12,547 nt of DNA from a virus (lineage: Duplodnaviria > Heunggongvirae > Uroviricota > Caudoviricetes). Position 1 is the first letter of the stretch. Each line of letters begins with the position of its first letter. Below, piece after piece: positions 1,569 through 12,469 of this stretch. Location: IMG/VR virus record IMGVR_UViG_2675903434_000005. One strand, given 5' to 3'. A program made the translations under genes and the position numbers. The notes below the pieces were generated by a model. It was given only the letters and a program-made list of their open reading frames with translations, ran no database searches and was not told the DNA's origin.

Positions 1569-1640
1569 CGATTTCTTTATCTCTTACATCAGACGAGCGC
1601 CGGTTGCAGAATACCAGTCACAACCGGCGACAGTTGAACA

Positions 1641-4112
1641 TTAAGAATCAGCCTGACTCGGGATCAGTTTTTGCCAGATAACTGAAACGTATTTTGCCTG
1701 GTAACGGGCGTCATCAAGTGCATTATGGCGCTCACCTTCGAATGGAATAGCCGTTCTGGCATCGAAGTCTATGGCTTTCCCCAGCTCAACGATTGTGCGT
1801 ACATCGCGATCGTTGTAGTAACGCCACGGGCAGGGGATCCCCTGCCGTTCGTATGAACGGCGCAAAATCGTGTTGTCGAAGTTGGCTCCATTTCCCCAGA
1901 CCTGAACAAAAAATTCACCGGAGTTTTCGTCGATAAATTCCCACAATTGTAACAGTGCATCATCTAACGGGATTTCATCGGTCATAATGGCAGATTGCGC
2001 TTCGCGTGATTGCTTAAGCCACCATTTAATGGTGTCCCGATCAATGACTCCGCCAGCAGTTTCCAGATCGATAGTCTTACTAAATTCCGGTCCCATATCT
2101 CCGGTTTGCGGATCGAAAAATATTGCACCTATTGAGATGATCGGGGCATCAGGATTTTTTCCCATGGTTTCAAGGTCGATCATTAGATGGTCACACGTCC
2201 TGCTGGTGGATGTGATTTCTTGATGACCGTTCACCTTAATTGAGTGATCTGCCGTCTCGCCAGTTTCATTATCGCTATCGTGATGCTGATTGCCGCCAGT
2301 GTTCTCCTTGTGTGGATGTTCAGCGCCTTCCATTTCCTCCGGATCATCTTCCTGAACTTCAATCTGATACTCTTCATCGAATGTTTCCTGGTATGTTGCG
2401 TCGCCCATTACCGCGCCACAATCAGGGCAGTTGCCGCCGCCGGTCTGACCGCAGGCGGTGCAGACTTTTTCCACTTCCTGTTGCGCCACTGATTCAGGCT
2501 GTTTCGTTTCTGGCTCGTTTTGTAACGCATTTGGGCTGTTTTGTTCCGCTTTTTGGTAGTTCCGTTCCGATTCATGCTGGTTCTGGTTCACAGAATCGCG
2601 GGTCTGGATCCCCTTAACCCATTTCGGATCATTCGGGTCACTAATCCCTTCAACAAATTCACCACGTGATGCAGCAAGCAACTTATCGGCGTCAGGCTGG
2701 ATGATATTGGCTGCCTGCATAATTTTGTTTACTTCGTCAGCGGTAACTTTTATCGGCTCTGGTTGTTCTGAATCTTCAGCGGTATCTACATTTTGCGGTA
2801 AGCCCGTGTATGTGCCATTTTTTCGGGCAAAATATTCTTCTTTTGTGATTTCAGTGGCGCCAGCAGCCAGTGCCTTATCCAGACCAGAAAGTTTGTTTGC
2901 GCGACCGTATTTTTCTCCGTCCTTATCTGCGAAGAGGAAATAGAACGGCCCCTCACGCTCTACAGATGGTTCAGCTTCCGGCGCGGTTTCATTTTTTGGG
3001 ATATCAGATACCTCAGTTTCCACTGCATCAGTTTGTGTTTCTGATGACTGGAGAACATCAACAGTGCCCAGGTCTGTTTCTTCATTCTCAAACACGCCCT
3101 TTGTCGTCAGGTATTCGCAGATATATTTGTTCAGTGCTACGGGATCTTTGTGAATGTCGATCGGACGCTCACGGACAAGGCCAAAAATAGTTTGGCGGTC
3201 GTAGCGAAGGGCATCAGGCTGTTTGCGCATTGATGCCGAGATACGCTTCCAGTCTTCGCGGTCGTTGTCGATAACTTCATTTTTTGCCCAGCGATGGATG
3301 CTGCCGTCAATGTTTCCGGCATCCACATCACCAGGCCAGAGAGCGTAGGCCAGTTCGTCATCCAGTGTTTTCCATGTCTGCTTGTATTCGCGATGAATGG
3401 CAGCAATGACCGGGCTGATTTTTCCTGTTGAATTTTCAGTGTACTGTTGATTGGCTCTGGCGCGGGCGAGATCAACAACAGACGTGTATTTTCCGGTTTC
3501 CTTGCGTTCACCTTCGCGACGTTTTTTCCAGATGCGCATCTCTGCCTGAATTTCGGGCCATTTAGCACCAGGAATACATTTATGCTTAACCCACCCAATG
3601 GCGTGCAACTTAAGCTCCGGATACATGGCGTTAACTTCTGGCATTTTCATCAACGCTTCAACGATATGTCCGTCGAATGTTGCCATGTCTTCCTGCAACA
3701 ATTCCTGTGCGCTAATAACCATATCAACGGTGATGTTTTCACATGTGTCGAACTTAACCATGACAGCGTTCTGTACTTCAGGGGCCAGCTTGTCAAAAGT
3801 GACGTTCATCGGATCGGATTCAGTCTCAACCGGGACAAAAGAAGCAGACTCCTCATCCCAGCGGTTTTCCTGCATATATTCAGCATCCCATGAATCGAGG
3901 GCAGGGCGGGGTATGCCAGGTTTATCCTCGCAGACAATAAATTTATAAGCGCAGTCCTGAGCAGCCGGATAATGTTCCAGGAATTGCCAGTGAAATTTTG
4001 CTCGAGCACGGCGTTCGTCGCCAGCTTCAATGGCTGTGGCTACAGCCACAGCGCCTTCTTCCCTTGTTGCCAGTTCGTCAGGAATAGCGGCGCAAATAAA
4101 GACTTTACTCAT
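1641..4112 (-). CDS. Exonuclease, intact YdfE-like: RecE-like N-terminal region, central CxxC-x7-CxxC zinc ribbon, C-terminal DEDDh 3'-5' exonuclease domain
   Basis: ORF track 1641..4148. Start set at ATG 4112 (MSKVFICAA), which has a GAGG Shine-Dalgarno about 10 nt upstream. C-terminal ~190 aa show DEDDh motifs: MIDLETMG (Exo I), WGNGANFD (Exo II), HNALDDARY (Exo III). The middle holds CTACGQTGGGNCPDCG and Asp/Glu-rich linkers. Occupies the position of ydfE in the Qin gene order. Confidence 0.8.
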   Translation of the reverse strand: MSKVFICAAIPDELATREEGAVAVATAIEAGDERRARAKFHWQFLEHYPAAQDCAYKFIVCEDKPGIPRPALDSWDAEYMQENRWDEESASFVPVETESDPMNVTFDKLAPEVQNAVMVKFDTCENITVDMVISAQELLQEDMATFDGHIVEALMKMPEVNAMYPELKLHAIGWVKHKCIPGAKWPEIQAEMRIWKKRREGERKETGKYTSVVDLARARANQQYTENSTGKISPVIAAIHREYKQTWKTLDDELAYALWPGDVDAGNIDGSIHRWAKNEVIDNDREDWKRISASMRKQPDALRYDRQTIFGLVRERPIDIHKDPVALNKYICEYLTTKGVFENEETDLGTVDVLQSSETQTDAVETEVSDIPKNETAPEAEPSVEREGPFYFLFADKDGEKYGRANKLSGLDKALAAGATEITKEEYFARKNGTYTGLPQNVDTAEDSEQPEPIKVTADEVNKIMQAANIIQPDADKLLAASRGEFVEGISDPNDPKWVKGIQTRDSVNQNQHESERNYQKAEQNSPNALQNEPETKQPESVAQQEVEKVCTACGQTGGGNCPDCGAVMGDATYQETFDEEYQIEVQEDDPEEMEGAEHPHKENTGGNQHHDSDNETGETADHSIKVNGHQEITSTSRTCDHLMIDLETMGKNPDAPIISIGAIFFDPQTGDMGPEFSKTIDLETAGGVIDRDTIKWWLKQSREAQSAIMTDEIPLDDALLQLWEFIDENSGEFFVQVWGNGANFDNTILRRSYERQGIPCPWRYYNDRDVRTIVELGKAIDFDARTAIPFEGERHNALDDARYQAKYVSVIWQKLIPSQADS

Positions 4113-4204: not shown

Positions 4205-4396
4205 TTAAAGACCTGCCGGGATTTCGATATTATCCTGGTGAATAACTTTATCGACCGGGTAACAGTTACCGGGAATTTTCTGTTCGGTTGCTGCAGTCAT
4301 ACACTCCTGCATTGTCCTGTGAACACTGACTGCAATATCAACTGGCTCTCCGGAAACAAGAAAAACTGTCAGAACAAGCACAAATGCTGAATTCAT
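4205..4396 (-). CDS. ydfD: YdfD-like small protein with N-terminal hydrophobic segment (63 aa)
   Basis: ATG at 4396 forms an ATGA overlap with the upstream stop, and an AGGA Shine-Dalgarno sits 8 nt upstream. N-terminus MNSAFVLVLTVFLVSG is a predicted transmembrane or signal segment. The 63-aa length and position directly downstream of dicB match Qin ydfD; assignment is by synteny and length. Confidence 0.6.
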   Translation of the reverse strand: MNSAFVLVLTVFLVSGEPVDIAVSVHRTMQECMTAATEQKIPGNCYPVDKVIHQDNIEIPAGL

Positions 4397-4581
4397 TGTG
4401 CACATCCTTTTGGCATCAGACGTAAACGAGCCAGCATTGAAACAATGCATATTTTATTTAATAGCTCCCGTTCTTGTTTTCTCTTGTTAATGGCATCTTC
4501 AGTAAATACTGGGTTACTGATAGTGACACCAATTTCAAAACAACCTTCAGACGTATTAACGTTTGGTAATAACGTTTTCAT
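4393..4581 (-). CDS. dicB: DicB-like cell-division inhibitor (62 aa)
   Basis: ATG at 4581 is preceded by a GAGGA Shine-Dalgarno at 7-nt spacing. It is 62 aa and sits directly downstream of the DicF sequence on the same strand, as in the Qin dicB operon. Confidence 0.7.
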   Translation of the reverse strand: MKTLLPNVNTSEGCFEIGVTISNPVFTEDAINKRKQERELLNKICIVSMLARLRLMPKGCAQ

Positions 4582-4750
4582 TATCGCGTCCTCAACAATG
4601 AATTTTGTGATGCAGTGCCTGGTGCCTCCAGGTGACGTTAACCAGTTAACAATTAACGCCGGATACAGAGAATCCACCCATAACACTGTTTTTGGTTTTA
4701 ACTGTTCCGCGTGCGCTCAGCCGCATTCACCACATCACAAAATTCACTTT

Positions 4751-4808
4751 AAAAAGGGCGGCAGAGCAGTCACGGAGTAAAACTGATACCGCCAAACGTC
4801 ACCAGAAA
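4751..4808 (-). ncRNA. dicF: DicF small regulatory RNA (antisense regulator of ftsZ and other mRNAs)
   Basis: Minus-strand sequence TTTCTGGTGACGTTTGGCGGTATCAGTTTTACTCCGTGACTGCTCTGCCGCCCTTTTT matches the E. coli DicF sequence as I recall it, including the 3' U-tract terminator. It lies between the ydfC-like gene and dicB, as in Qin. Confidence 0.7.
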
Positions 4809-5148
4809 ATTGATAACAGAGGGCGTTGCAGCGGGGTTGTCACTTAAGCGTATGGTCAACCTGACAACCCGGTGTCCTCAACGGGGAAGAAATAACCCCG
4901 CCATACTTACCGCCGCACCATTTCGCGGGTTGCCACAACCGGAAGCGCACGGTCGACGAAAATTTAACGACAGGCTATCTATGAACCAGCTACCTCGCCG
5001 TGCGCTTTCGCGTTATGGTCTGACTTTTCAGGGAAATATCCTTTCAGTAAACTGTCAGTGCCGGATGCTCACCCGTGTCCGGCGCACGCACTCCACCTCA
5101 CCCGTGGAGAACTCCTTAATTACCAACCTTAGCTTCGTTGGTTAGCTA

Positions 5149-5367
5149 TTAACGCGGGTATGTAATCATTCTGGCAATGCTTAATGCCGCTGCTTTTTCC
5201 AGATTGGTGATATCCTGCTCCAGAGCGGACAGATTTTCAGCCTGCTTAGCCCTGGCTTCATTGGCCCATTTCAGATCCTGCGCTGCATTAATTTTCTGGC
5301 GCATCCACTCATAAAGTTCATCATCGGTATAGTCTGGCGCGATGATGACGGGTTCTCGTTTCTGCAT
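5149..5367 (-). CDS. ydfC: YdfC-like small protein (72 aa)
   Basis: ORF track 5149..5367. GAGGAA Shine-Dalgarno about 6 nt upstream of the ATG. The 72-aa length and position upstream of dicF match Qin ydfC. Confidence 0.6.
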   Translation of the reverse strand: MQKREPVIIAPDYTDDELYEWMRQKINAAQDLKWANEARAKQAENLSALEQDITNLEKAAALSIARMITYPR

Positions 5368-5396: not shown

Positions 5397-5525
5397 TCAG
5401 CCGTTAGATTTTGCCGAACTGGAAAGCGCCTGTTTAAATTCGTTGAAGCTGTGAGCTTCTTCGCCTTCGGCAAGGCCTTCGAAGTATTCTTCGTAAGCCT
5501 TTTCCATGATTGTGTCAAAATCCAT
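5397..5525 (-). CDS. ydfB: YdfB-like small protein (42 aa), not in the ORF track because it is under 60 aa
   Basis: Translated by hand: MDFDTIMEKAYEEYFEGLAEGEEAHSFNEFKQALSSSAKSNG. AGGTGA Shine-Dalgarno upstream; its ATG lies 1 nt after the stop of the upstream gene (TGATATG). Length and position match Qin ydfB. Confidence 0.55.
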   Translation of the reverse strand: MDFDTIMEKAYEEYFEGLAEGEEAHSFNEFKQALSSSAKSNG

Positions 5526-5526
5526 A

Positions 5527-5682
5527 TCACTCACCTGAGTTTCTTTCCAGCCAGCGACGGGCACCATTTTCGGTTTTAAACGTTTTGCTTTTGGTATACG
5601 TCATTGCGGTGAAGGTGCCGTCCTGGTTTGGAAACACGCCGTACACCAGAGATTCGTTGTTGCCAAGATCGATAGTATCCAT
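5527..5682 (-). CDS. ydfA: YdfA/YdaF-like (DUF1391-type) small protein (51 aa)
   Basis: Part of ORF 5527..5763. Start chosen at ATG 5682 (MDTIDLGNNESLVYGVF...), which has a GAGG Shine-Dalgarno 5 nt upstream, giving exactly 51 aa; the longer 78-aa form has no ribosome-binding site. First gene of the leftward small-gene operon. Confidence 0.6.
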   Translation of the reverse strand: MDTIDLGNNESLVYGVFPNQDGTFTAMTYTKSKTFKTENGARRWLERNSGE

Positions 5683-5861: not shown

Positions 5862-5910
5862 AGTTTAGAAAGACGAACTTTCCAGGTCAATGTTTTTTTA
5901 TCAAAACATT
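5862..5910 (-). promoter_or_regulatory. Candidate leftward early promoter (pL-like) with adjacent operator-like palindrome
   Basis: On the minus strand: TTGACC (-35, plus coordinates 5885-5890), 17-bp spacer, TAAACT (-10, 5862-5867), about 175 nt upstream of the ydfA-like start. Abutting the -35 is a perfect palindrome AATGTTTT-N6-AAAACATT (5889-5910) with the same TGTTTT/AAAACA half-sites found next to the repressor start codon. Confidence 0.4.
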
Positions 5911-5974: not shown

Positions 5975-6613
5975 TTAAATATCTTGTTGAATTTTAAAGC
6001 ATACGCCCAATATGCAAGATAGATCATCCAGCATAATTGAAGGGTAGCGAGGATTCGTGGGGACTAAAAGAATATCCGGCCCTTCTATCTCCAGTTTACG
6101 AATGACAGGTGTTGTGGTCCCTTTGGGTAAGGCAAGGACAATATTTCCTGGTTGTACGGTTCGATCGGGATCAACAAAAACTGTTGAACCATTTGGGATG
6201 GAAACTCCCCCACCAGATGTTGACATACTGTCACTCTCTAGAACAACTGCAAAGGTATTGACCGGGATTTCTCCGACAAGCTGCACACAAGAGGTTATTG
6301 AGGAATTTTTCATATAATCACTCCAGCTTGCTGCCTGCTGAAGTGATAGTAGCGGAACCGTTTTTATCGGCGGTAAAGATAGATCAAGCGAATCACCTGT
6401 ATTTAACTCTCCTCCATTAAGAAGCCAATTTTCGTTTACTTTCAATATTTTTGCCAGTGAACTTATGTAACGCGAGGACGGCGCTCCTCCACCGTTCATC
6501 CATTGACTTACGGAGCCTTTTGATGCGCCAGTGCCATTGACAAGGTCTTTGCCTTTCAGGTTTAGCGCATGCATACGTTGGGTTATGCGTTCAGATATAG
6601 TTTGCTTGCTCAT
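5975..6613 (-). CDS. CI-like prophage repressor (N-terminal HTH, C-terminal S24 LexA-type autopeptidase domain)
   Basis: ORF track 5975..6613 (212 aa). C-terminal motifs align with lambda CI: LESDSM vs VEGNSM (Ser nucleophile), VFVDPDRTVQPGNIVLA vs ILVDPEQAVEPGDFCIA, IRKL vs FKKL (Lys), LVPTNPRYPSI vs LQPLNPQYPMI. N-terminus has an HTH (GASKGSVSQWMNG). Divergent from the Cro-like gene. Confidence 0.9.
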   Translation of the reverse strand: MSKQTISERITQRMHALNLKGKDLVNGTGASKGSVSQWMNGGGAPSSRYISSLAKILKVNENWLLNGGELNTGDSLDLSLPPIKTVPLLSLQQAASWSDYMKNSSITSCVQLVGEIPVNTFAVVLESDSMSTSGGGVSIPNGSTVFVDPDRTVQPGNIVLALPKGTTTPVIRKLEIEGPDILLVPTNPRYPSIMLDDLSCILGVCFKIQQDI

Positions 6614-6704
6614 GTTTTGATTTTAAAACACAGATGGTTTTGTTTCTTGACTTTCTTTGGTTTTGATTATTAAACTTTTGACGTTCAGTTTTATGGAGCG
6701 ACTC
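6613..6704. promoter_or_regulatory. Divergent switch region (OR-like): operator repeats, rightward promoter, leaderless leftward promoter
   Basis: Palindrome TGTTTT-N6-AAAACA at 6613-6630. GTTTTG starts at 6614, 6637 and 6660, exactly 23 bp apart. Rightward TTGACT (6647-6652), 18-bp spacer, TAAACT (6671-6676). Leftward TAAAAT -10 (6620-6625) ends 6 nt before the repressor ATG, implying a leaderless transcript as for lambda cI from PRM. Confidence 0.45.
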
Positions 6705-6935
6705 ATGAAAAAATCAGAAGTATTAGGCTATTTTGGCGGAGTTGTTAAAACAGCCGCAGCTCTAGGAACGTCAAAAACCACAGTCAGCATGTGGGGGGAA
6801 GAGGTTCCGTGGAAATGGGCGTTGCTAATTCAGGCAGTCACTGCCGGGGCGCTCAAATATGAGTTACACATACCGACGGTTGTCATTCCCGGTTCTGATC
6901 ATAATCCGCCTTCTAACCAAGGGGGGGATTCATGA
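6705..6935 (+). CDS. Cro-like HTH regulator of the YdaS family (77 aa)
   Basis: Part of ORF 6657..6935. Start chosen at ATG 6705 (MKKSEVLGYFGG...), with GGAG 6 nt upstream. HTH region VKTAAALGTSKTTVSMW. First rightward gene, divergent from the repressor. Confidence 0.75.
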   Translation: MKKSEVLGYFGGVVKTAAALGTSKTTVSMWGEEVPWKWALLIQAVTAGALKYELHIPTVVIPGSDHNPPSNQGGDS

Positions 6936-9019: not shown

Positions 9020-9376
9020 ATGGAAATAAAACCAGAGGATGAGTTAAGCAATATCGTTTTATTTCCGGTAAAAGAGGATGACCCTCGTAATCAGGTTAAT
9101 TTTCTTTATGAGCCATCGGAAAGACCATATTGTCATCACGCCTCTGTCCGGGTTGACGAAAAAGAGCGTCAGGTCCGCTGTAAAATCTGCGGTGCAGTTG
9201 TGGAGCCATTTGACTGGATGCTCTCTGTGGCGAAAAGAGAAACCAGACTGGCAGATGATGTAAGGCTCTTGCGTCAGGAGGAGCGGGAAAGGCGAAAAAA
9301 TATAGAAAAGCTAATTCAGATTGAGCGTAACGCGAAAGCGCGGATACGCAGGGCGACAAAATCCAGAACTGAATAA
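9020..9376 (+). CDS. Hypothetical protein with CHH...CxxC zinc-ribbon-like motif and basic coiled-coil tail (118 aa)
   Basis: Part of ORF 8963..9376. Start chosen at ATG 9020 (MEIKPEDE), with GGAGAGGAG immediately upstream. Motif PYCHHASVRVDEKERQVRCKICG. Confidence 0.6.
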   Translation: MEIKPEDELSNIVLFPVKEDDPRNQVNFLYEPSERPYCHHASVRVDEKERQVRCKICGAVVEPFDWMLSVAKRETRLADDVRLLRQEERERRKNIEKLIQIERNAKARIRRATKSRTE

Positions 9377-9469
9377 TTAAATTTAGCTCTGTTAAAAATT
9401 TAATCCTTAACCGGAGGGATTTCTGCACCCTCAGAACATCAGGAGGCCGCCCGAAAGGGCGGTAGTTAA

Positions 9470-10567: not shown

Positions 10568-10686
10568 GACTGCGGGTGCTTGAGGCTATCTGTCTCAGGC
10601 ATGAACACCAAAAGGCAGATAGAGAAAAGCCCCAGTTAACATTACGCGTCCTGCAAGACGCTTAACATTAATCTGAGGCCATATCT

Positions 10687-10746
10687 ATGCGACACATAGA
10701 GATTAGCCTCTTACGGACCGAAAGGTCAAGGAGAAGCAGGCTATGA
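10687..10746 (+). CDS. Short leader ORF translationally coupled to hok (mok-like, 19 codons)
   Basis: ATG 10687 with GAGG upstream; its TGA stop (10744-10746) overlaps the hok ATG (10743-10745) as ATGA. Confidence 0.35.
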   Translation: MRHIEISLLRTERSRRSRL

Positions 10747-12459: not shown

Positions 12460-12469
12460 NNNNNNNNNN
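12460..12469. other. Run of 10 ambiguous bases (assembly gap or mask)
   Basis: Literal n x 10 in the sequence. Confidence 0.99.

Follow-up and report, generated by a model that had tools for sequence, protein, structure and literature searches.

DicF is among the oldest known bacterial small RNAs, and the question raised by its locus here is what the RNA lying immediately upstream of it in the transcript is for. The locus sits in a 12,547-nt stretch of viral DNA (Caudoviricetes; IMG/VR record IMGVR_UViG_2675903434_000005), hereafter called the window. An earlier note on this DNA had placed DicF on the minus strand within an intact ydfABC-dicF-dicB-ydfD operon, and had suggested that a perfect 9-bp inverted repeat just 5' of DicF could be a processing determinant.

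DicF, its operon and its processing sites

DicF is indeed encoded on the minus strand, as evidenced by a covariance match to RF00039 (4756-4807, 76.7 bits vs. a gathering score of 48) spanning model positions 1-52 of 52, by its position between ydfC and dicB (flanking genes assigned from ORFs and Pfam) and by a terminator hairpin of -15.1 kcal/mol followed by CUUUUU, with a U5 tract at 4751-4755 (minus strand) directly 3' of the 53-nt form. The alignment to E. coli K-12 dicF called for in the earlier note gave 100% identity to MG1655 across DicF and the 9-bp hairpin, and the ydfC-dicF spacer is 99% identical. For K-12 DicF, a 53-nt RNA that represses ftsZ has been shown to be made in vivo (PMC5069750), and the description of DicB and DicF as inhibitors of cell division agrees with published work (PMC10448788, PMC5069750). 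The operon is complete as had been claimed, without frameshifts and with the Qin-like gene lengths listed in Table 1; its tight coupling, on the other hand, holds only within the pairs ydfA/ydfB (1 nt apart), ydfB/ydfC (29 nt apart) and dicB/ydfD (4-nt overlap) but not from ydfC to dicB, where a gap of 567 untranslated nt contains dicF. DicF and the operon in the window are already known and very common, with matches to a 216-nt query including DicF (window 4745-4960) in 4425 of 5426 complete E. coli genomes, and matches to the operon region in 4682 of these genomes, at a median of two places per genome.

Table 1. Coordinates of the features of the window, from its first letter onward
Feature	Position	Strand	Size or sequence	Basis
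Integrase	2-1297	minus		Pfam, RefSeq annotation of near-identical prophages
Excisionase	1317-1568	minus		Pfam, RefSeq annotation of near-identical prophages
Exonuclease	1641-4112	minus	823 aa	Pfam, RefSeq annotation of near-identical prophages
ydfD	4205-4396	minus	63 aa	Pfam DUF1482 3.9e-26
dicB	4393-4581	minus	62 aa	Pfam DicB 1.9e-40
DicF small RNA	4756-4808	minus	53-nt form	Rfam RF00039; K-12 identity
Spacer with RNase E site 4809/4808	4797-4825	minus		predicted fold of the 190-nt precursor
Conserved structured domain	4826-4938	minus	113 nt, five helices	alignments A3, A4; model R1
Helix P0	4938-4933 with 4831-4826	minus	UUGUGG with CUGCAA	A3/A4
Helix P1	4928-4924 with 4917-4913	minus	CCGCG with UGCGG	A3/A4
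Helix P2a	4912-4909 with 4873-4870	minus	CGGU with ACCG	A3/A4
Helix P2 (variable hairpin)	4899-4896 with 4886-4883	minus		A3/A4
9-bp hairpin (helix P3)	4834-4870	minus	9 bp	exact inverted repeat, covariation
Helix P3, core	4868-4862 with 4842-4836	minus		A3/A4
Probable pseudoknot, 5' strand	4901-4906	minus	GUAUGG	complementarity, one covarying pair
Probable pseudoknot, 3' strand (in the 19-nt loop of P3)	4850-4855	minus	CCAUAC	complementarity, one covarying pair
Long irregular stem	4933-5018	minus	~25 bp; 13-nt arms	fold z = -4.71
ydfC	5149-5367	minus	72 aa	ORF/translation, RefSeq names in relatives
ydfB	5397-5525	minus	42 aa	ORF/translation, RefSeq names in relatives
ydfA	5527-5682	minus	51 aa	Pfam DUF1391
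Promoter-like site	5862-5890	minus	TTGACC, 17 nt, TAAACT	consensus scan only
S24-peptidase / HTH repressor	5975-6613	minus	212 aa	Pfam Peptidase_S24 4.3e-13
P22-type Cro	6657-6935	plus		Pfam P22_Cro 1.6e-15

The prophage is lambdoid, and the window covers its left arm. Its operon shares gene order, gene lengths, DicF sequence, hairpin and spacer with that of the K-12 prophage Qin, and the K-12 operon region is 98.9% identical to it across 95% of the length. The host prophage is nevertheless not Qin itself, because it carries an S24 cI-type repressor, a P22-type Cro and, past ydfD, intact exonuclease, excisionase and integrase genes, in contrast to DicA/DicC and the IS2-disrupted remnants of K-12; homology to K-12 ends at ~5720 in the window, and control by DicA/DicC was not found here. 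The int, xis and exo genes share the strand of the DicF terminator and follow it, while the genes for P22-type Cro, a YdaT-like protein and replication run divergently, rightward from the immunity region. Between the repressor gene and ydfA, the promoter-like site is a candidate counterpart of dicBp or pL. Neither ydfA, ydfB and ydfC nor the short ORFs upstream of the domain described below have an N-like annotation in Pfam or PHROGs, and the PHROGs matches of the three ydf genes are to families of unknown function.

For the processing sites, and for the occurrence of both termination and read-through at DicF, we rely on the literature. The 5' end of the 53-nt form is generated by RNase E, whereas its 3' end is set either by Rho-independent termination or by RNase III acting on the read-through RNA, the latter yielding a 72-nt form (PMC10448788, PMC5069750); RNase III also sets the 5' end of a ~190-nt species, with the cut at 813/814 in the numbering of PMC10448788, and this species, comprising the upstream domain and DicF, accumulates in vivo (PMC10448788). 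In the window, the RNase E cut corresponds to 4809/4808, and counting 190 nt back from 4755 to 4944 would place the RNase III cut at about 4945/4944. The latter position belongs to the 3' arm of a long, irregular stem spanning 4933-5018 (-37.4 kcal/mol, z = -4.71, with none of 200 shuffles folding equally well), the arms of which are conserved in sequence across Qin-type loci while the apex is variable. We surmise that this stem is the likely RNase III substrate and, since the cut for the 190-nt species maps into it, that the stem rather than the 9-bp hairpin is the RNase III determinant. The hexamer UUGUGG (4938-4933) serves two helices, contributing to the base of this stem as well as to the 5' strand of helix P0 in the domain. 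On the other side of the domain, the predicted fold of the precursor contains a small hairpin in which UGUUAUCA (4818-4811) pairs with the seed of DicF, UGGUGACG (4804-4797), and the loop contains the RNase E site; it is possible that the seed would be masked in this manner. We also considered a long-range stem around the domain and DicF, pairing CCGUGCGCU upstream with AGCGCACG downstream; it can form in Qin-type loci, and we set it aside because the upstream arm is missing in vB_Apl-pPE4 and in the cdtI type.

The 9-bp hairpin and the domain around it

The inverted repeat is exact as had been read, with GGGTTGTCA at 4834-4842 and TGACAACCC at 4862-4870 complementary at 9 of 9 positions across 19 intervening nt, and the hairpin is retained in both the minimum-energy and the centroid folds. 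As judged from the window sequence alone, it is not significant: about 1.5 perfect 9-bp inverted repeats with loops of 3-30 nt are expected by chance in a window of the same size and composition, 68% of resampled windows contain at least one, and the present window has five distinct ones. We accept the hairpin as real because of covariation in its relatives. Within the core, which pairs GUUGUCA (4868-4862) with UGACAAC (4842-4836) around the loop 4861-4843, five of the seven pairs show compensatory changes among 49 distinct sequences, as exemplified by GGAUCACCA/UGGUGAUCC in the type designated L303, GUUGCCA/UGGCAAC in phage P1 and type L281, and GUCGUCA/UGACAGC in type L304. The outermost two pairs of the 9-bp stem are less certain, with G4870 possibly closing helix P2a instead and position 4869 changing frequently without compensation.

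These comparisons make us highly confident that the hairpin is a genuine helix (P3) of a larger conserved RNA domain which serves as the body of the 190-nt precursor of DicF. Scanning viral and metagenome contigs by pattern, a sampling biased to matches of a 29-base pattern (29 positions fixed), yielded 261 instances with 153 distinct sequences; DicF follows 88 of these, and other modules follow the remaining 65. The covariance model R1 was built from a MAFFT alignment (A3) of 46 representatives, not fitted to any structure, and in turn gave an alignment of 51 sequences (A4). In A4, 96.9% of the cells were standard-paired vs. 31-59% with the partners slid by 1-3 columns, 15 of 32 pairs had changed on both sides vs. 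4-8 in the slid controls, and none of 500 shuffles matched any of the observed measures; analysis of A3 showed the same picture. The model scored 147.5 bits at the domain in the window, and helix P0 carries five compensatory pairs in the L303 type. Relatives found among phages by blastn, as well as loci chosen by the DicF core, are independent of the search pattern and agree with the pattern-based sample.

The outer helix P0 encloses P1, the P2a/P2 arm and P3, and a probable pseudoknot connects GUAUGG, in the internal loop of the P2 arm, with CCAUAC in the loop of P3. The 6-nt complementarity behind this pseudoknot is present in 49 of 49 distinct sequences, although the search pattern itself had dictated four of the six pairs; the one pair that it left free on both sides covaries, being U-A in 42 sequences, C-G in 4 from two lineages, U-G in 3 and unpaired in none. 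Two further scans, aimed at 5'-strand variants, returned only three singletons, one forming a wobble and two breaking a pair, and none compensated. We thus consider the pseudoknot probable, with weaker support than for the helices. Many of the bases outside the helices are strongly conserved as well.

The domain measures 125-134 nt across relatives, with indels chiefly in P2 and not in multiples of three; these frame-breaking indels, together with the compensatory pairs, rule out a protein-coding constraint. A tRNA-like element was likewise rejected, as ARAGORN found no tRNA or tmRNA in the window. In searches of Rfam 15 with cmscan, the domain had no match in the window, with only noise at E<=10, and no matches at E<=0.01 were seen in the P1, P7, cdtI and F1055 loci. 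No second copy of the domain was found in the window or in related contigs.

Where the domain occurs

A blastn search with window positions 4745-4960 recovered relatives of the DicF-upstream segment that lack DicF, at 88% identity in phages cdtI, Ayreon and 2H10 and in Stx2c phages, at 82% in Salmonella phage F1055 and at 75-80% in P1, P7 and P1-like plasmids. Aligning these relatives revealed a conserved block of ~110 nt, followed by a different terminator hairpin in each lineage. Conversely, all 99 of 99 viral contigs chosen by the DicF core alone have one full-length domain directly upstream. The domain is a single copy per locus (100 matches in 100 sources with R1 at E<=1), with none in the rightward operon. 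Among 165 distinct domain loci, 162 have a terminator hairpin and U-tract starting 27-87 nt past P0, and the seed/terminator modules behind the domain fall into at least 10 classes besides DicF, with a domain-to-terminator spacer of 8-51 nt that differs in sequence between classes. One type, comprising L303 and L358, retains the fold and has the most compensatory changes, with no adjacent terminator and with ~2 kb devoid of ORFs around it. In a Salmonella genome, a DicF-like terminator is combined with a different seed, and the domain is missing. No RNase III stem was evident upstream at loci of the P1 and cdtI types.

The copy in phage P1 scores 99.6 bits with R1. What the P1 record labels a 'dicF-like region' in the ban leader (AF234172, 68791-68892) is the same conserved block; that annotation is a similarity note only, and P1 lacks DicF, with a different seed and terminator behind the domain (GCCCAUCUUCGGGUGGGC, then a U run). 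In P1 and P7, the domain begins ~25 nt past the -10 element of the C1-controlled ban promoter (Pban) and is followed by the terminator, then by tRNA genes and non-coding sequence amounting to more than 1 kb, and finally by tciA and ban. The distance from the repressor gene (cI) or the pL region to the domain further downstream is 300-350 nt in cdtI, Ayreon, an Stx2c phage and vB_Apl-pPE4. The equivalent position downstream of the repressor in lambda is occupied by nutL and N, and no N-like gene was detectable at the domain locus in any of these four phages. In all contexts examined, the stretch between the promoter or last gene and the coding gene that follows comprises at least ~550 untranslated nt, and in the window the domain follows ydfABC and precedes the only clear intrinsic terminator of the operon.

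As for the modules behind the domain, we considered whether the small RNA of the cdtI type is AgvB, and rejected this since AgvB lies 3' of PR' and not in the leftward operon; the two have only a CACAACA motif in common. The Pas small RNAs, described in a preprint, proved irrelevant to the DicF locus.

What the domain may do

While the structure, conservation, genomic positions and link to terminators were observed here, an antitermination activity is what we infer from them. We tentatively propose, with a probability of roughly 0.4, that the domain is a cis-acting aid to terminator read-through and, by analogy, a functional counterpart of the put RNAs of phage HK022; that it amounts to a new class of processive antiterminator RNA in N-less Qin/Rac-like phages and the P1 ban operon is a somewhat bolder suggestion, to which we give slightly less credence. 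The domain is the 5' body of the ~190-nt DicF precursor, with RNase III cutting 6 nt 5' of it and RNase E cutting 17 nt 3' of it to free the 53-nt DicF, and constitutes a leader element common to the repressor-controlled early operons of Qin/Rac-like lambdoid phages and the ban operon of P1/P7. In the scheme that we propose, the folded nascent domain would act in cis on its own RNA polymerase, or on the RNA in the exit channel, such that a fraction of polymerases would pass the small-RNA terminator as well as Rho-dependent sites in the untranslated leader. The genes behind the terminator that must still be transcribed are, in the window, dicB, ydfD, exo, xis and int.

We favor read-through for the following reasons: 1) the domain invariably belongs to a repressor-controlled early operon and lies in a long part of it that is untranslated; 2) it is positioned just 5' of an intrinsic terminator, ahead of genes that are required; 3) it occurs at the 5' ends of primary transcripts, where a promoter dedicated to the small RNA would suffice; 4) it persists in one lineage without an adjacent small RNA, with retention of the domain in L303/L358 in the absence of an adjacent terminator implying a role beyond maturing a neighboring small RNA; 5) its complexity is beyond any need of RNase E cleavage. 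In K-12, the terminated transcript and a read-through ydfABC-dicFB-ydfD transcript both exist (PMC10448788). As an aside, K-12 Qin is a defective prophage with few phage proteins, and read-through is present there all the same. More generally, a folded RNA upstream of a terminator can suppress termination (bioRxiv 10.64898/2026.06.17.733018), and put provides a precedent for an antiterminator RNA that is independent of protein (PMC9378689).

Several observations speak against this reading. The read-through transcript accumulated in Northern blots only upon inactivation of RNase E (PMC10448788), and termination at DicF is efficient enough to yield the 53-nt RNA, so any antitermination must be partial. 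In Qin-type loci, the base of the RNase III stem holds CCAUAA/CACAA, an upstream partner with which UUGUGG can pair first, and such a capture would hold back the folding of the full domain. At 8-51 nt, the spacer also exceeds the very short spacers that worked in 'tug-of-war' experiments (bioRxiv 10.64898/2026.06.17.733018). Lastly, a small-RNA-like module that is nearly always found downstream fits a role in small-RNA biogenesis equally well.

The comparison with HK022, in the immunity region of which we located putL and putR through their mutual similarity, shows both likeness and difference. Both systems comprise structured RNAs encoded in cis in repressor-controlled early operons upstream of terminators, with conserved unpaired bases and no N gene at that place, and a put-like position past the early promoter and before terminators is found for the domain in P1/P7, cdtI, Ayreon, an Stx2c phage and vB_Apl-pPE4. 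In contrast to put, which is ~70 nt with two stems and present as putL and putR, the domain is ~113 nt with five helices and a pseudoknot, and occurs once per genome. Comparing the domain with putL and putR by blastn, by local alignment and by R1 with filters off returned only noise. This lack of similarity and the single copy likewise count against the read-through reading. Factor-independent antitermination by HK022 put depends on the zinc-binding domain of the beta' subunit.

The main rival holds that the domain is a platform for small-RNA biogenesis, acting after synthesis and on its own transcript only; as such, it would define or present the RNase E site, mask the seed until cleavage and stabilize the 190-nt intermediate, and would release any seed and terminator module as a 5'-monophosphate small RNA. 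This is a serious possibility, though we judge it improbable on balance. The mapped RNase III and RNase E sites bracket the domain exactly, the 190-nt species that contains it accumulates in vivo, the domain is found at every one of the DicF loci sampled by the DicF core, a small-RNA-like module stands behind 162 of the 165 domain loci, and the predicted pairing of the DicF seed with the spacer leaves the RNase E site in a loop. However, the four-way junction, pseudoknot and conserved unpaired bases far exceed the known needs of RNase E, for which the site already lies in the usual AU-rich context. In P1, the cdtI type and vB_Apl-pPE4, moreover, the domain is near the primary 5' end, such that a promoter placed before the seed would do. 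The two can also be uncoupled, with the Salmonella DicF-like small RNA having no domain and the L303/L358 domain having no small-RNA module, and ectopic 53-nt DicF is active without the domain (PMC5069750). Known small RNAs excised by RNase E or RNase III include 3'-UTR-derived small RNAs and the RNase III-processed ManS and CJnc190. To our knowledge, a conserved multi-helix domain with a pseudoknot, common to unrelated seeds, is absent from all of these.

Alternatively, the domain may be a riboswitch-like sensor, i.e. an aptamer recognizing either a protein or a small molecule, that would set the ratio between termination, yielding the small RNA only, and read-through into dicB/kil and the recombination and excision genes; we consider this unlikely. 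Like riboswitch aptamers, including those of the 'tug-of-war' kind, the domain has a multi-helix junction and a long-range pseudoknot upstream of an intrinsic terminator. Its 113 nt, the pairing of a loop with an internal loop, its conserved unpaired bases and its covariation-supported fold are all typical of aptamers, a terminator follows in 98% of the loci, and riboswitches with no sequence overlap between aptamer and terminator have been reported (bioRxiv 10.64898/2026.06.17.733018). Unlike riboswitches, however, the domain shows no conserved switching helix: a CCGCUG/UGGCGG pairing is possible in the window but absent in the cdtI type, no exclusive pairing of terminator with antiterminator is conserved, and the spacer to the terminator is longer and variable, with unrelated sequences between classes. 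Furthermore, its setting is a phage early operon rather than a metabolic gene, the gene context gives no hint of a ligand, and there is no Rfam match.

A further reading, which we find similarly hard to favor, is that RNase III and RNase E together free a ~135-nt RNA that acts in trans, for instance through a host protein that it binds. In its favor, the cuts on either side are documented, a pseudoknotted fold this compact would withstand nucleases, and the loops are conserved; on the other hand, a ~135-nt species is unreported, albeit on blots probed for DicF which would be blind to it, the upstream RNase III stem is not evident in P1-type and cdtI-type loci, and no known protein-binding motif was recognized in the domain.

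The version in the earlier note, namely that the 9-bp hairpin by itself directs processing by RNase III or RNase E, is very unlikely. The hairpin does lie upstream of the DicF 5' end, at a distance of 26 nt, and all of the predicted folds contain it as a stable helix. RNase III, however, requires about two helical turns of duplex, and the 9-bp helix is too short to be its substrate, falling well below the ~20 bp or more that would be expected at a mapped cut; the mapped RNase III site is ~75 nt upstream in another stem, the RNase E site is 26 nt downstream, and the hairpin is kept at loci that have no DicF. There is hardly any chance that the repeat is fortuitous or conserved on account of an overlapping coding frame, despite the number of such repeats expected per window, the hypothetical ORFs annotated across the region in some phage records and the window ORFs at 4810-5145 (plus strand) and 4840-4950 (minus strand), a reading that we rejected because compensatory changes maintain the pairs and the indels would shift any spanning frame.

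The new finding is that the 137 nt by which the long-known 190-nt precursor exceeds the 53-nt DicF are a strongly conserved, covariation-supported and probably pseudoknotted domain and not a passive spacer, and that this domain is common to at least 10 other prophage small-RNA cassettes and to the leader of the P1 ban operon. It is found neither in Rfam nor in the searchable literature, where a full-text search for its sequence strings returned only unrelated papers, and an earlier description in older DicF or P1 papers is possible; in the annotation of the P1 genome, the sequence similarity to dicF was noticed long ago. If the domain serves instead as a platform for maturation, it would be a modular 'launch pad' for phage small RNAs. 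If our preferred reading of read-through is true, the domain would explain how lambdoid phages lacking N express their kil/dicB, recombination, excision and integration genes from behind a strong terminator, and it would add a second kind to the protein-independent antiterminator RNAs, of which only one is known. As an antiterminator, it would also allow fast-evolving small-RNA genes such as dicF to sit inside early operons.

Possible alternative pairings at the domain base and predicted pairing of the DicF seed

In the stretch 5' of DicF, we noticed that the hexamer UUGUGG has two possible partners, an upstream CCAUAA, which reads CACAA instead in many relatives, and a downstream CUGCAA/CCACAA, these upstream and downstream partners being direct repeats of one another. 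Pairing with the upstream partner forms the bottom of the long irregular stem that is probably cut by RNase III (the RNase III stem); pairing with the downstream partner closes P0, the outer helix of the conserved 113-nt folded RNA (the domain). Given these alternative partners, we surmise that folding of the domain could be licensed by RNase III cleavage. In the predicted fold of the DicF precursor, the DicF seed UGGUGACG is paired with UGUUAUCA, with the RNase E site lying inside the 6-nt loop of this hairpin, and we postulate that the seed may be masked by this pairing until cleavage. Compensatory changes in the UGGUGACG/UGUUAUCA pairing were absent among the variants, all of which were compatible with it.

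Motifs resembling ops and boxA

The heptamer GGCGGUA is identical to nt 1-7 of the RfaH ops element (GGCGGTAGNNTG) and departs from it at the eighth base. One copy lies within the domain's invariant core, and another forms the 5' arm of most terminators. When the 190-nt DicF precursor is folded at minimum energy, the terminator's 3' arm is paired to the GGCGGUA of the domain and not to its own 5' arm. The 5' flank of P0 in the non-Qin types (L196, L197, L207, L281 and L292) reads UGCUCUC(U/A)... and is partly boxA-like (GCUCUUUA), a likeness that is weak; in Qin-type loci, those with a dicBF operon, the corresponding bases are paired within the RNase III stem.

Other features of the window

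Elsewhere in the window, the sok match fits a type I toxin-antitoxin locus of the hok/sok (hokD-like) kind on the prophage's right arm, and there are four perfect inverted repeats of at least 9 bp with short loops besides the DicF-side hairpin.

Features of the window and of related loci
Feature	Location	Strand	Remarks
UUGUGG	window 4933-4938		
Upstream partner	window 5013-5018		
Downstream partner	window 4826-4831		
DicF seed hairpin	window 4797-4818		
GGCGGUA	window 4908-4914, 4787-4793		
Stretch conserved 3' of the small-RNA terminator	window 4617-4730; L370 3280-3410		
sok antitoxin RNA	window 10574-10745	+	Rfam RF01794, 106.7 bits
Inverted repeats	window 1598-1629, 5318-5348, 9022-9066, 9376-9404		9022-9066, up to 11 bp
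10 consecutive N	window 12460-12469		
One domain copy, then two tandem, near-identical small-RNA modules, then kil in place of dicB	L370 3094-3279		Actinobacillus phage vB_Apl-pPE4, PP818812
Domain copy with greatest divergence, many compensatory pairs	L358 3000-5000; L303		metagenome contigs
DicF-like terminator (GGCGGCAUCAG...CUGCCGCC, then U run)	L028 ~3600-3700		Salmonella enterica chromosome
Stretch matching DicF and flank	MT713136.1 249906-249979		Aeromonas phage AP1
Small-RNA variant with CCACCACAACA, 3' of domain	L196 ~2600-2690; L367; L368		cdtI/Ayreon/Stx2c-phage type

Relatives of the domain and of its small-RNA modules

Conservation between dicB-type and kil-type loci extends 3' of the small-RNA terminator, in a stretch that includes the palindrome GTTAACTGGTTAAC and, within the dicB/kil 5' UTR, the hairpin CCUGG-AGGCA-CCAGG. 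The vB_Apl-pPE4 region resembles an E. coli Rac/Qin-type lambdoid phage, making Actinobacillus surprising as its stated host. Near the most divergent domain copies, no terminator was found within 200 nt, and in the surrounding ~2 kb neither a convincing ORF nor an Rfam match was found; this domain may be a portion of a longer non-coding transcript.

As for sequences resembling DicF, the DicF-like Salmonella terminator follows another seed and is without the domain upstream. The Aeromonas phage match, 74 nt at 98.6% identity, is close to the end of a 254-kb record and may represent contamination or a chimeric assembly. The R1 seed of GcvB has CACAACA as its consensus target, a motif that occurs within CCACCACAACA of the cdtI/Ayreon/Stx2c-type small RNA and likewise in the sponge AgvB; these two RNAs differ in phage position. 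We speculate that the cdtI/Ayreon/Stx2c-type small RNA may be a further GcvB sponge.
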